This document shows positions 1,478 through 40,188 of a stretch of DNA of 64,000 nt, one piece after another (position 1 is the stretch's first letter; each line of letters begins with the position of its first letter). The stretch comes from Octopus vulgaris (lineage: Eukaryota): contig OX597819.1 in NCBI GenBank assembly GCA_951406725.2, positions 128,774,001 through 128,838,000 of the forward strand, read 5' to 3'. The position numbers and the translations under genes were made by a program. Below the pieces are notes generated by a model. The model saw only the letters and a list, made by a program, of their open reading frames with translations, was not told the origin of the DNA and made no database searches.

Positions 1478-1796
1478 GGAGATGTACTCGCATAGCAAGT
1501 GATTTGATCTGAGATCGTGTGCTGAAACGAAAATAATTGCAGCGTGGAAGGTGTTTGTAAGCCATTTAAGAAACACACAAAAGCCGTTCGATTCACTTCA
1601 ACATTTAAGTTTAATTTGTCAAAATATTTTCGTCGCTGAAATCCGCGACCGATGCAGCACGGATTTTTGTCAGTGAACATGTCGCGGTCTTTAAGCGACG
1701 AAAATATTTTGACGAATTAAACTTAAATGTTGAAGTGAATCGAACGGCTTTTGTGTGTTTCTTAAATGGCTTACAAACGCCTTCCACGCTGCAATT
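1478..1796. mobile_element. Fold-back hammerhead element, family HH-A (PLE pLTR-like), flanked by (TA)n
   Basis: Inverted arms ~1535-1650 / 1681-1796; (TA)n on both sides; homologous copies at 20075-20411 and 34894-35179. Confidence 0.85.
1666..1716 (+). ncRNA. Type I hammerhead ribozyme, G3:C8 core variant (HH-A)
   Basis: TTTGTCA-GTGAACA-T-GTCGC..GCGAC-GAAA-ATAT-TT-TGACGAA: stems I and II, palindromic stem III AATATT. Confidence 0.7.
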
Positions 1797-2899
1797 ATAT
1801 ATATATATATATATATATATATATATATATATATATATATATATTTAAACGTCTTTTAAAATGTCTTGTTTGTCTAAATAGAACTGAAATACTGAAAATA
1901 AGCAAATTATCGCATTTTGTTATAATTAGACACCTTACGCAACATAATTTGACAGTCGTAAAGAAGCATAAATGAATTTTAATACATCACAGGACTGAAT
2001 AAAAATTAAAATCTAATTAATTATTGCAATGGTTAAAATATTTAACGGCGCTGCAAAGAATAAATATGTTAATGGTTTAGTTTGTTTCCGCGTGGTTTAA
2101 TTTCAAATTAAAAGTAAAATGAACCACATAGAATTACTTTCGTTAGCTTAAAATGATCCTGTGATAAATGCCATACTTTTCTCTTTAAATATTTCCCACG
2201 AGACTTTTAAGTGTATTTAGATGCATATCTCAGGAGCAACCTAGATTAGGCATCCACAAAATGTTACATCCAAAGCAGAGTACCTCCATTACTTCGATGA
2301 GTTCCCAACAAAGCCATTTGCCGATGCAAATAAAACAACACACGATGGATGGAAACTAAATCTTAAGAAGGTGTTCCCACATTGTCTTAGGTTTTGAAAC
2401 AGCATTAGATTATAATGACCATCTATATAACATTAAATATTAAAAGACACCGTTGATAGATTTAGTATGATATACACATGTTGAAACTACACACACACAC
2501 ACACACACACACACATATATATACTTGTGTCCGCGTTCGCTGGTATAAAGGCTAAAATGTACTTGTATTGGCTATCCGTATATATTTACTTGTTAATCTA
2601 CTGCAGCTACAAGAGAGAGAGAGAGAGAGAGAGAGGGGGGGGAGAGAGAAAGAGAGTGAGCAAACAGATAAGAAAGAGAGTGTCATCTGTGTATCACACG
2701 ATGCAAATATGCAAATACATCACGAAAAGCCAAATTAACCGAGGTATTCGTCCGGAGATATCCCTTCTGGATACCCTATTTCAAATAACACAAATATATC
2801 TTACTCCAATAATTGTTGTTGTTGTAGTTGTTGCTGTAATAGTTGATTCTGCAACTCCTGTTGCTACTCTTGTTGTTGCTTTGTTCGTTTGTTTGTTTG

Positions 2900-3263
2900 T
2901 TTGTTGAGCGAAGCGGTCTTCGTCCCATTAGTGGGAGAAGTCCGAAACGTGGTCCTTTGCTATTCGTAAGATCCCGCAGAAGAGAAAGCAGGTCAACCCC
3001 CGACACCGAGAGCATCGACGGATGGCTGAATGCGCATCAAGGCTCAGCGGTTGCGTAGGAAGTCGGGGACAAGAAACAGGAAGAAAGAGTGAGAGAAAGT
3101 TGGAGCGAAAGAGTACAACAGGGGTCACCACCACCACCCCCTGGCGGAGCTACGTGGAGCTTTAGGTGTTTTCGCTCAATAAACACACACAACGCCCGGT
3201 CTGGGAATCGAAACCGCGATCCTCCGACCGCGAGTCCGCTGCCCTAACCATTGGGCGATTGCT
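2900..3263 (-). mobile_element. tRNA-derived SINE, family A head with alternative 3' tail and (CAAA)n end
   Basis: Reverse complement of the family A head (aatcgcccaatggttagggcagcggactcgcgg..gtttcgattccc); tail differs from the 16508 copy. Confidence 0.8.
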
Positions 3264-3387
3264 CTTCCTCTTATTGCTGCTCTTGTTGTTGCTTTTGCAA
3301 CTGTACTATGGGAGCTAATATGCCTTCCATCATTTAACAAGTTGTGTCACGAACAAATTGCAAAATAACCTCGTGAGCTTCGAAGCA

Positions 3388-3659
3388 CTCATCGCCAGAT
3401 GTCGTCACATAATTTGTTAATACAAGTAAAATAACCAGACAACAGTAAAAACAATATAACGAACTAACAAATCTCTTTACGAACCAGCAATCAATATTCC
3501 TTGTGAACTGACCAACCGACAACATCCAACTTCACTGCGAACTAACACGAAATTGGAACACTGAACTTTTGAACTGAACTCCTACATATCATTACTATAT
3601 ATACTTTATTCGGACCAGTCTATCTCTCGAAAGGGAACGTCGTAACTCTCATCACAACA
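3388..3659 (-). mobile_element. Putative Gypsy-like LTR with primer-binding site
   Basis: Minus strand TGTTGTGA...TGACGACA termini, then TC-TGGCGATGAG (PBS-like). Confidence 0.45.
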
Positions 3660-38100: not shown

Positions 38101-39359
38101 TGTTAACGCTTTATAGAGGCCGGGAAAACTATATAAAGAGATACAGAGAGATAACGTAACGGGTGCAGAATGAGTGTATATACTAGGCTCGGTGGCAGAC
38201 AATGAGTAAAGCAACGCTACGTTACACACTGTGAGAGAGAGAGAAAAAAAAAATCATAGAATCAGAATCAGAAGACGTGGAGGAAGAAGAGGAGGGAGAT
38301 GAGGAAGAAGAGGATAGAAGATGAGAAAGGGGAAAACGAGAAGGAGGAAGATGAGGAGTAGGAAGATGATAAGGAAGATGAAGAAGATGAGGCGGAGAAA
38401 GGGGAGGAAGAAGAGGAGAAGGAGAAGGAAGATGAGAGGAGGTATAGGAAGAGGAGGAGGGAGAAGGGGATTAAATGACAAAGTTGTTATGGGATGGGCT
38501 ATATTGAACGGAATAGCAGATAAATAGGTACATACATACAGGTATGTGTAAAGCGAAAAAGGTAATTTGGTATGACAGACTGACTATTAAAAATAATCTA
38601 GCCTGCATTTATGTATATGCATTCTGTGTCCGTAACTTAGTATCTATATTATTGGGAATAACACATTCGAACTGTATTTCATAGTTTATATCAATAATTG
38701 AAAAGGAAAGAAATAGAACAAAATTTCTCTCCTTGTTGATTTTATATTATAGAAATACACACACGCATAAAAAACATCTATGGTTGTTTTAGAAAAGCTA
38801 AGGCGATGCTTTGCTTTAAGAACATACAGATTGAAAAAGAAAAGAGAATGAAATCAGGAACGTACGAAAATAAACTTTCTAAGTGAAACGAATAAGTAAA
38901 TATTTAAATGTCAGTTATTAAACATCATAATCATCGAATTCTGTTTTCATTTCTCAACAGTATGATTGATGTAGCTGCTTTATATGACTGTAGCATTTTA
39001 GAAGATAAAACACCTGTTATCAAAAGAAAGACACAAACTGACCATTTCTTTCTAATTTCTCTTTTATTAACTTTAAAAGGATATTTTTGTTTGCATTTCG
39101 AAATGAGCTGTCAATTCGCAAATTAATTTTACGCCAGATAACCGAAGAGATGGTGGTGTGGATTTCCACCTCGGCATCCGAAACTCAGAGTTTTATCGTG
39201 GCTATCGAATAATTTGTCACATATTATTTTACACACACACACACACACATACACACACACACACACACATATATATATATATATATATATATATATATAT
39301 ATATATATATATATATATATGTATGAGTTCACACTTATATATATATATACATGTTCACA

Positions 39360-39800
39360 CTTTTATCGACTTTTATCGCAATGTATCAGTCCAGACGCGT
39401 TTTGCACTGTTCGAAGCAGAGCTGGAACTCTTGCGAAGTGAGGCCTTTTAAAGCCTCCGTCATTTTTTTTTTATTCACCTCTTCTCCATCTCTTCCACAT
39501 CTGAAAATTCCGCAGCACGAGATTTCGTCATCAGTGATGACTTTCGAAAAAAGGTTCTGATCAACATCCAGTTGTTTTTCTCAGTTCACGACAGGCATTC
39601 AGTCATGATTGCTTTTGATCTTCTGTGAGCAAGTGAGGTACAAATTTTGCCGCAACTCTTTTCATTCGCAGTTCCTCGCTCAAAGTTCGTTGGCAGGAGC
39701 TCCAGGACACACCAATCATATCAAAATGTCTGTCAATTGTTCGGCAACAGTGCTCCACGATCAGTTCATGAATTTTCATGATGCCTTCATTTGTTCGGGA
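39360..39800 (-). mobile_element. mariner transposase fragment
   Basis: LSEELRMKRVAAKFVPHLLTEDQKQ (WVPHEL-type motif), then a KVITDDE-like motif. Confidence 0.8.
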
Positions 39801-39990
39801 TGTCTTTATTCTCGCATTTATTAATACACTGCATTTTGGTAATCCGATCAGTAACGGCAGTAAGGTATGATACATCACCTATTTTGTTAATGTCATGCTT
39901 TGTATTAACAAATAAGCTATAAATGTGGTCCAGTTGATGTGTTGGTTAATCTGTGGTTTTCTCCATTTTCTAATTATTTGCATTTATATA

Positions 39991-40188
39991 TGATAGATCG
40001 TTAGCCACTACACACGTTTTTTTTTCTCTCCTTGTGTCTCTCCTTGTCTTTTCTGTGTCCCTTTCTGTAGAAGAGCGTAGGCTCGAAACGTAAAAGTCTT
40101 TTTTCTATTCCTGAGCGTTATACTAATACATCTGTTTGTTTTGTACACCACCTGTCTTCGTCTTCTGTTTTTTTTCGTAAACTCTTCC
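39991..40188 (+). mobile_element. HH-B element with hammerhead at 40061-40096
   Basis: CTTT-CTGTAGA-A-GAGC-gtag-GCTC-GAAACGTA-AAAG; followed by a long TA tract. Confidence 0.85.

Follow-up and report, generated by a model that had tools for sequence, protein, structure and literature searches.

Are the short, hammerhead-bearing pieces in this stretch of the Octopus vulgaris genome a diversified system of non-coding retroelements, as a first-pass annotation had proposed, or are they the ends of Penelope-like elements (PLEs)? The window analyzed here is the whole stretch of 64,000 nt (GCA_951406725.2, contig OX597819.1, 128,774,001–128,838,000, forward strand). We assign a probability of about 0.72 to a mixed answer, in which A, B, C, E, and F, five of its seven hammerhead families, represent 3′ terminal repeats of protein-coding PLEs that persist as short insertions, and family D is an ORF-less tandem element likely mobilized in trans, probably via a self-cleaved circle.

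Hammerhead folds in the window and in the genome

The type I descriptor (stem I, N3-U-G-N-N-N8-A, an optional extra base, stem II, GAAA, a palindromic stem III, UH) matched eight out of 12 proposed sites, while palindromic sites arise by chance at a mean of 0.075 in 40 shuffles of the window. The site at 17702 (minus strand, core at 17800), whose stem II carries a 68-nt insert, passes once a longer stem II is permitted, and thus nine of the approximately 12 claimed type I hammerheads hold strictly. The remaining three belong to real families but are imperfect: at 15899 (family C), a mismatch or bulge at the stem II base is common to the whole family; at 10062 (family F, minus strand), the window copy shows a mismatch within stem I, and its loop III is not palindromic; and at 35049 (family A, copy A3), two nucleotides are inserted after the cleavage base, damaging the hammerhead. 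One extra match outside the proposed sites, 32298 (minus), is non-palindromic. As 20155 and 20222 correspond to the two arms of a single insertion, the window contains 11 insertions. The Rfam scan of the window gave no hammerhead above the threshold, only a sub-threshold HH9 match at 9602–9666 (19.7 bits, E-value 3.8, against the gathering score of 52); its miRNA and snoRNA matches were rejected as microsatellite noise.

The hammerheads form seven sequence families, A–G, two of which, A and B, recur three times each, in agreement with the original description. The features are as follows (element types are the assignments argued for below).

1478–1796, both arms: insertion A1 in (TA)n; inverted tail-bearing arm 1478–1650 (minus) head-to-head with a plus arm
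1673, plus arm: A1 hammerhead core, GUGAACA
8801–9704, plus: E, 5′-truncated Neptune-type PLE (last 33 EN codons, 3′ UTR, pLTR)
9613–9650, plus: E hammerhead, U3-A8 core
9966–11212, minus: F, decayed 5′-truncated PLE with RT-thumb/EN remnants
10062–10106, minus: F hammerhead
15626–16094, plus: C, 5′-truncated pLTR of a Hydra-type PLE, with a tail; short inverted arm at 15626–15692
15899–15976, plus: C hammerhead
16921–17076, plus: B1, short pLTR of a Neptune-type PLE
16950–16985, plus: B1 hammerhead, core CUGUnGA (A6U)
17471–18043, minus: D insertion, a minus arm and an inverted arm, both in (TA)n
17471–17919, minus: D minus arm, 0.9 unit, long 3′ end
17702–17808, minus: D hammerhead, 8-bp stem I, canonical core, 10-nt near-palindromic stem III; cut predicted between 17710 and 17709
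17869–17919, minus: second, weak hammerhead-like fold of the D unit (A6C core, wobble-rich stems), a relic or chance
17916–18043, opposite arm: D inverted arm, short 3′ end
20075–20412, both arms: insertion A2, a perfect 138-bp head-to-head palindrome in (TA)n
20197 (minus) and 20229 (plus): cores of the A2 hammerheads; tail only on the plus arm
33262–33298, plus: G hammerhead, canonical core, old family
34280–34481, plus: B2, family B copy; hammerhead 34354–34389
34893–35182, both arms: insertion A3, inverted tail arm and a plus arm starting at 35032
39990–40188, plus: B3, family B copy; hammerhead 40061–40096

Most of the elements are bounded by (TA)n, as claimed, the exceptions being A3 (34893–35182) and G (33262).

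The proposed large ribozyme reservoir finds support in the 18 folds counted in 360 kb of random genome, compared with 0–3 in shuffles, from which the genome-wide number of hammerhead folds is estimated as roughly 130,000 (range 70,000–200,000). For six of the seven families, exact copies number from 740 to 10,900 per family genome-wide (5,645 for A and 10,900 for B). For family G, the tight pattern has one match in the genome and a DNA search yields 11 weak relatives centered on the fold; neither revealed boundaries or a partner ORF, and no PLE protein was found at 12 G loci.

The 492-nt tandem unit of family D

Family D is a young, ORF-less 492-nt tandem retrozyme, with the longest open frame of 68 aa, a unit period of 492–493 nt, and a type I hammerhead in every unit. 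Its arrays comprise up to 10 units, flanked by (TA)n and arranged in arms that meet head-to-head, with two fixed 3′ ends separated by about 100 nt. Of 821 places, the first 100 group into 36 insertions, 19 of them head-to-head, none tail-to-tail, and 15 with a multi-unit arm; in the same 100 places, unit spacing is 490–499 nt in 43 out of 45 intervals. The suggested TA preference is supported here, (TA)n being present at 11 out of 11 D ends against the background of 4.8%. Units are 99.6% identical within arrays and 98.8% between arrays, both arms of an insertion carry one haplotype, and variants are array-wide (23), single-unit (15), or partial (2).

Inverted arms, fixed 3′ ends, and (TA)n are marks of PLE insertion, and together they agree with an RNA circle being copied in the rolling-circle manner. 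Hence, D has very likely been moved by PLE machinery, as judged from these marks; its own helper did not emerge from the search for PLE protein matches (0 of 30 D loci), and comparison with the examined loci gave only a 26-nt match, in L129. In the mechanism that we propose, the PLE RT-endonuclease would nick AT-rich or (TA)n DNA on both strands, and cDNA would be primed at two fixed internal RNA sites, as suggested by the two fixed 3′ ends per family; this has been demonstrated in vitro for another PLE. The two cDNAs may then join 5′-to-5′, which would produce the head-to-head arms and the extra tail on one of them that are seen. The D unit appears to hold the priming sites, the downstream sequence, and the ribozyme; its multimeric transcripts may be cleaved into 492-nt circles, and the RT could go round such a circle several times in both arms.

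On balance, a circular RNA template for D seems the better guess. A less likely, though substantial, alternative is that the arrays come from linear read-through transcripts of existing arrays, in which the ribozyme stays mostly uncut, or that local tandem amplification followed insertion of a monomer. It agrees with in vitro data, where ribozyme mutants had no effect on PLE insertion and uncut RNA was the main substrate (PMC11167929); moreover, array homogeneity cannot tell a circle from a linear multimer, since multimeric transcripts of a homogeneous array would give the same outcome. However, local amplification fails to account for multi-unit arms flanking an inversion on either side with the fixed 3′ ends intact, the stems of the D ribozyme are the strongest in the set (z −3.9), the unit is predicted to fold compactly as a circle (−134 kcal/mol, z −3.9), and related retrozymes are described as producing abundant circles (PMC7229834). 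In run X1, which is only guessed to be RNA, one 523-nt contig spans the D unit with an end-to-start bridge and a 30-nt self-overlap, and the end-to-start join is also present in X2, X8, and X16 (a large run, kind not stated); as tandem DNA yields an identical join, these contigs are not counted for the circle.

Families with coding partners

Families A, B, C, E, and F are, by sequence comparison, very probably the 3′ ends (pLTRs) of GIY-YIG PLEs, with a confidence even higher than that for the PLE-driven movement of D. Longer copies of all five continue into PLE coding sequence, in line with the suggested PLE link and with the alternative that the first-pass annotation had given in brackets, a population of solo pLTRs. 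Its main proposal, that the pieces without ORFs constitute independent non-coding families, stands only for D, and the diversified system of non-autonomous families shrinks to this one family, with G assigned to neither group.

The RT and C-terminal GIY-YIG upstream of the pLTR were identified by Pfam in E, by blastp/tblastn and motifs in A, B, and F, and by motifs only in C. The full copy of E is a 4,386-bp tandem unit (Pfam RVT_1, E-value 1.5e-8; GIY-YIG, E-value 8.7e-5), and positions 8802–8900 of the window encode the last 33 aa of EN with 91% identity to it; remnants of F are 35–50% identical to the family A partner protein. These are indeed the two ribozymes reported as attached to GIY-YIG remnants. 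Long A copies (L147, L319) continue into RT-EN frames, the long B copy L044 runs into an EN related to that of E (blastp E-value 3e-19), and C has a full copy in the form of a 4,684-bp tandem unit containing RT-EN reading frames; both C and E thus contain partial tandems pLTR-ORF-pLTR. Pfam did not recognize the partner pieces of A, B, or C, and the C protein has no significant blastp link to proteins of the other families; hence, the PLE status of C rests on motifs and structure. The clade names Neptune and Hydra follow motifs described in PMC8557442, not RT phylogeny. Inverted 5′-truncated arms, a tail at one end, and an AT-rich target or TSD are present, most clearly in A, C, and E; the TA preference is weak in F (5 out of 25 ends). 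The pieces of C, E, and F represent ordinary 5′ truncations of variable length.

The 5′ ends of family A are of another kind. Genome copies were located by pattern searches and arm extents were determined by an ungapped walk: 13 of 67 arms stop exactly at −17, 39 end short of it, and only nine go beyond −22, the wall being an initiator-like base that lies about 17 nt upstream of the ribozyme. Among the first 100 of 1,030 G-or-C places, 48 have G immediately before the initiator-like A (hand count), compared with 167 A-or-T places at the same position; a single G occurs there about six times as often as A or T in a genome that is 65% AT. The G also precedes the initiator-like A in the plus arm of A3. 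It occurs at this position in none of 39 occurrences in long A copies, and 20 G junctions have no further upstream letters in common. At several junctions, the G is part of the target duplication (L016, L396, L399) or may derive from the other arm, and thus it is not always visibly untemplated. Target duplications of 9–13 bp were found at six out of eight non-TA loci tried. Family B, with extents read by eye, has only a soft 5′ wall without a clear extra G, and nine of its 70 copies are long. The family A boundary also resembles a splice acceptor.

We suggest that most cDNAs of A, and less sharply of B, end at this base, and that the short copies probably reproduce the whole capped 5′ leader of the PLE mRNA, with priming in the upstream pLTR. 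For family A, the capped-leader origin, with the transcription start predicted from sequence, is probable, and the copies would likely be dead-end by-products, since they would carry no sequence downstream of the priming sites. Full-length tandem A elements, the pLTR followed by the ORF start, were absent from the five long stretches examined.

It is less likely that the wall is instead a reverse-transcription stop or a template-switch hot spot caused by RNA structure, a 5-nt tail match, or a splice acceptor. The first bases of short A copies do match the complement of the tail end, many arms end a few bases short of the wall, and the sequence upstream of it looks like a branch point, a pyrimidine tract, and CAG, with the D. 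virilis Penelope intron reported to end beside helix I (PMC4209133). Nevertheless, both corresponding origins of the G are disfavored: fold-back on the tail predicts GG, present at only one of the 20 junctions, and splicing predicts a common exon, at odds with the lack of shared upstream letters. The excess of a single G over A and T also speaks against such a stop.

Still less likely are the short families, A and B above all, to be SINE-like or retrozyme-like, self-propagating non-autonomous elements with their own pLTR promoter, re-mobilized by PLEs in trans. The sharp 5′ end of A, the exact copy numbers of both families, and the prevalence of short copies (only 9/67 in A and 9/70 in B extend upstream) would suit such elements, as would the reports that pLTRs act as cis signals for trans mobilization (PMC3846280) and that a full promoter is located in the pLTR (PMC2377424). 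But the long coding partners carry identical ribozyme sequence, short head-to-tail tandems are absent (among 405 examined occurrences of A, B, C, E, and F, none has a same-strand neighbor closer than 700 bp), short C and E copies end before the ORF start, and the RNA of one tested PLE requires sequence downstream of the priming sites (PMC11167929).

The cores bear on whether the ribozymes function. A has a natural G3-C8 swap and E has U3-A8, both compensated, and B departs at position 6 (A6U), with position 7 taking all four bases (A23, T23, C19, G5 of 70). With N3 and N8 left free, 35 out of 41 fold clusters show a Watson–Crick 3-8 pair (C-G, G-C, U-A, A-U), compared with none of 22 matches in the reversed-sequence control; the clusters are not independent, eight being family A, and 18 of the 22 control matches carry one 3-8 combination. 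Such covariation across families, the free position 7, and the retained palindromic stem III are features of catalysis and dimer formation. They make it improbable that the folds are inactive relics or protein-binding structures only, with the A and B cores no longer cleaving, even though A6 changes are reported to reduce activity (A6C to below 0.1 per min; PMC3088659), C3G/G8C rescue is only partial (PMC11167929), and the stems of B, E, and G as monomers fold no better than shuffles. Minimal PLE hammerheads are described as having low or protein-dependent activity (PMC4209133, PMC11167929), and one out of nine Xenopus retrozyme dimers cleaved (bioRxiv 2026.07.22.740005).

The most specific combination is tentative, at somewhat less than even odds: D would be an actively spreading viroid-like element, its circle copied in the rolling-circle manner by two PLE enzymes at both nicks of one (TA)n target, and A copies would be capped-leader cDNAs with a functional G3-C8 core. 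If so, D would be the first retrozyme whose insertions record the mechanism of its helper, and tens of thousands of solo hammerhead pLTRs of family A would reveal why PLEs need tandem copies.

Comparison with known systems

This class of elements has been described (PMC4209133, PMC7229834, PMC8557442, bioRxiv 2026.07.22.740005): hammerheads in pLTRs at PLE 3′ ends are a known arrangement, and both PLE pLTR hammerheads and retrozymes are known broadly. The comparisons below refer to the portions of these papers considered here. Our literature search found no cephalopod retrozyme and no description of these families, which may be listed in Repbase/Dfam or in the repeat library of PMC13282606.

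The octopus folds resemble minimal type I hammerheads of metazoan PLE pLTRs (PMC4209133; Cervera and de la Pena, 2014) in the short palindromic stem III, the extra base between 9 and 10.1, the U3-A8 variant, the presence of many families in one genome, a predominance of single motifs from truncated PLEs, and opposite-strand pairs 100–700 bp apart. In the considered portion of that paper, we found no counterpart of the G3-C8 (A) and U6 (B) cores and no mention of cephalopods, and the numbers quoted are 2,000–9,000, compared with approximately 130,000 folds estimated for the octopus. An order of 100,000 folds with natural core variants is a ready library for ribozyme biochemistry.

Likewise, EN+ PLEs (Neptune, Nematis, Hydra; Craig, 2021, PMC8557442; Frangieh, 2024, PMC11167929) share with the octopus families the C-terminal GIY-YIG, partial tandems (in C and E), an inverted 5′-truncated arm, a tail on one arm, two priming sites, and AT or (TA)n targets. 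According to the clade motifs of PMC8557442, octopus C has the Hydra DKT and CxCx5C motifs, and the linkers are Cx4CxxC in B and E and Cx3CxxC in A and F. The tails are longer here (about 60 nt in A, 80 in C, 100 in D) than in EN+ PLEs (30–40), and the considered portions of the two papers yielded no counterpart of the hard 5′ wall and extra G of A solo pLTRs. Solo pLTRs have been ascribed to recombination or deletion (PMC3846280); for the excess of solo hammerheads from pLTRs in many animals, family A provides an explanation that can be checked.

Family D is similar to animal non-LTR retrozymes (Cervera and de la Pena, 2020, PMC7229834; Li, Clavereau, Pollet, 2026, bioRxiv 10.64898/2026.07.22.740005) in its tandem units, which lack an ORF and contain a single type I hammerhead, low GC, the range from monomers to multimers, and the proposed mobilization by PLEs, and differs from them in the stem II insert (68 nt). 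Who mobilizes animal retrozymes, and whether via a circle, has been argued from co-occurrence and pLTR similarity; D arrays show the twin-priming/inversion signature of PLEs directly (the words “inverted,” “target site,” and “rolling” have zero occurrences in the considered text of PMC7229834). As D is young (99% identity), short, and abundant, with exact priming sites, it is directly testable with a PLE protein in vitro. Two observations go further than the known picture, namely, the tandem insertion pattern of D and the wall of A with its preceding G.

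Hammerhead folds and their cores

The hammerhead folds are real and abundant. The first-pass annotation had placed about 12 type I folds in the window; eight of these sites were recovered with a relaxed type I descriptor, which gave 0.075 palindromic sites by chance per shuffle (40 shuffles), and the minus-strand site 17702–17808 was gained once a longer stem II was permitted. Three sites are imperfect: in 15899, the base of stem II carries a mismatch or bulge throughout the family; 10062 has a mismatched stem I in the window copy and a non-palindromic loop III; and 35049 contains a 2-nt insertion. 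Rfam at threshold detected none of the listed sites in the window. A random sample of 36 10-kb genome stretches contained 18 descriptor matches (shuffled controls, 2, 0, 0, 3, 0; reversed sequence, 1), which extrapolates to approximately 130,000 folds genome-wide (70,000–200,000), as expected of the large ribozyme reservoir initially proposed. Over the window's initial 40 kb, fold density is four to five times the genome average.

Exact patterns searched in 2.8 Gb (227 contigs) matched 5,645 copies of family A, 10,900 of B, 1,818 of C, 821 of D, 1,940 of E, 740 of F, and one of G, the latter having 11 weak relatives in addition; reversed patterns gave zero matches. The loci listed are the first places on contigs C1–C4, not a random sample.

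Covariation within the core is observed: when the descriptor accepted any base at positions 3 and 8, the 3–8 pair was Watson–Crick in 35 out of 41 fold clusters, in four different pairings, and in 0 out of 22 reversed-sequence matches. The clusters come from 1.42 Mb of partly overlapping, family-enriched sequence, eight of them are family A, and 18 of the 22 control matches have one same combination. The core of family A has G3–C8, found in the literature searched only as an engineered swap giving partial rescue (PMC11167929), and that of family E has U3–A8, known in nature (PMC3088659, PMC4209133). In the 10,900 exact copies of family B, position 6 is U; one relative with the canonical A6 (L132:4459–4577, elsewhere in the genome) suggests that A6U is derived, and our literature search found no natural A6U hammerhead.

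At window position 40931 (−), a canonical first core box with a nearby GAAA box, whose stems fail, is possibly a decayed eighth family. More short hammerhead families occur at L133:7470(+), L155:6377(−), and L157:9881(+); as in family A, their 5′ ends precede the core by approximately 25–35 nt. One has two TA-bounded copies, and another, a hairpin copy. The window also contains long imperfect, MITE-like inverted repeats without a hammerhead (22940–23190 and 9728–9862), copies of an abundant tRNA-headed SINE, classified by eye (16507–16890, 19085–19472, 29256–29640), and a GC-richer segment resembling, by eye at the nucleotide level, a LINE reverse-transcriptase fragment (25400–26600, +). The tRNA-derived SINEs and the microsatellite load of the genome appear octopus-like. 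A 2026 octopus repeat annotation gives 31 recently active Penelope-like families and, in the portion consulted, does not mention ribozymes (PMC13282606).

Penelope-like partners and TA targets

Most hammerhead folds are ordinary end pieces of Penelope-like elements (PLEs). Family C is the terminal repeat (pLTR) of a tandem unit of 4,684 bp. Reverse transcriptase (RT) motifs are present in the frames of this unit together with DKT and a CxCx5C linker, the latter two being features given for the Hydra clade (PMC8557442). The 4,386-bp unit that has family E as its pLTR gives Pfam matches to RVT_1 and GIY-YIG, and the final 33 residues of the endonuclease (EN) are still encoded in the E copy of the window. 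A long copy of family B (L044) runs on into an EN related to that of E (E-value 3e-19), long copies of family A continue through approximately 0.9 kb of 3′ UTR into RT–EN frames, and the family F remnant is 35–50% identical to the family A partner protein; the reported attachment of two ribozymes to GIY-YIG Penelope remnants holds for E and F. Since only the two E pieces out of seven proteins were recognized by Pfam above the cut-off, the partners of A, B, and C were assigned from BLAST links or motifs instead. Short head-to-tail tandems of A, B, C, E, and F were absent from the 405 occurrences examined. Hence, of the diversified non-coding retroelement families suggested by the first-pass annotation, D stands, whereas these five have coding PLE partners.

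Another decayed PLE 3′ end lies at 6549–7315 (+) of the window (35% identity to the E endonuclease, Cx4CxxC linker, hammerhead not detected). A 239-aa open frame adjoining a family A element (L319:5739–6455, −) resembles a Tc1/mariner transposase.

The proposed TA preference is borne out. (TA)n follows the 3′ end in 11 out of 11 cases in D, 19 out of 20 true ends in E (nine more continue into the tail, the extra 3′ sequence of one arm; one end not found), 11 out of 16 in C (four of the remaining five continue into the tail; 14 not found), 24 out of 34 in B (36 not found), and 28 out of 57 in A (10 not found), far above the background of 4.8%, though in F in only five out of 25 (five not found). 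Family A insertions outside TA have 9–13-bp duplications at six out of eight loci tried, so (TA)n is favoured as a target but is not an obligatory product. 5′ truncation is broad in C, E, and F (30 loci each), and A, C, and E have two 3′ ends and head-to-head arms. Truncation, two 3′ ends, inverted arms, and TA targets are all known PLE behaviour (PMC4209133, PMC8557442, PMC11167929).

The 5′ wall of family A

Family A was represented by 74 arms at 66 loci (four partner loci excluded beforehand), reduced to 67 by removing seven of eight same-junction copies. These eight hairpins (L011, L013, L261, L262, L264, L265, L268, L286) have one inversion junction in common and, judging by the flanks common to L011 and L013, were probably carried along within a larger repeat. 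Of the 67 arms, 13 have their 5′ stop exactly at −17; 39 stop nearer to stem I (within 16 nt), six at −18 to −22, and nine beyond −30. Position −17 in the long copies is the A of an initiator-like TCA–GAT motif. In family B, the boundary at a similar motif is less sharp (nine out of 70 long).

The base preceding −17 genome-wide is G or C at 1,030 places and A or T at 167, and a hand count of the first 100 listed of the 1,030 gave 48 G and 52 C; in the long copies it is C or T, and G in 0 of 39 overlapping occurrences. One base further upstream, 20 G junctions have A (8), T (6), C (5), or G (1), a mixture arguing against both a spliced exon and fold-back on the tail as the source of G. A simple reading is complicated by at least three loci where this G belongs to the target duplication and by several where it may derive from the other arm; this still fits a cDNA that ends in an extra C, which would be copied from the cap and anneal to G.

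In D. virilis, transcription of Penelope is driven by an internal promoter and begins inside the upstream pLTR (PMC2377424), and the lizard PLE requires RNA downstream of the priming sites (PMC11167929). Priming in the upstream pLTR would thus yield only TSS-to-tail cDNAs, incapable of further copying. Family A offers a testable origin for solo pLTRs.

Family D, a retrozyme with PLE-type insertions

By its structure, family D is a genuine retrozyme, and its insertions preserve an unusually clear PLE-type record. Its window copy is:

17471–18043 (−): 0.9 unit with a short inverted arm

Elsewhere in the genome, up to 10 copies of the 492-nt unit make up one array. The first 100 of 821 places yielded 36 insertions, 19 head-to-head, 15 with a multi-unit arm, and none tail-to-tail; the arms stop at either of two sites approximately 100 nt apart, straight in (TA)n. 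Open frames reach 68 aa at most, and no partner ORF was found near D at 30 loci. In the ribozyme, a canonical core is combined with stems I and III of 8 bp and 10 nt, respectively (z −3.9); the computed fold of the unit as a circle also gives z −3.9.

Units are 99.6% identical within arrays and 98.8% between them (30 units, five arrays). In 35 units from eight loci, 23 variants are array-wide, 15 single-unit, and two partial, and both arms of an insertion have a common haplotype. RT passing repeatedly round an RNA circle would produce multi-unit arms on either side of the inversion; a linear multimer template would look the same.

Every D unit contains a second, weak hammerhead-like fold with an A6C core (window 17869–17919, −), which is possibly left over from the parent pLTR or else a chance occurrence. 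Downstream of a long-stem-II hammerhead at L136:7940(−), the sequence resembles D by eye, a possible D relative or parent pLTR.

At AT-rich DNA in vitro, the lizard PLE protein cleaves the two strands and extends each of them, and cDNA begins at two internal sites, which define the tail (PMC11167929). The D insertions have exactly the same signature, but without enzyme-coding sequence, and are most naturally read as mobilised in trans.
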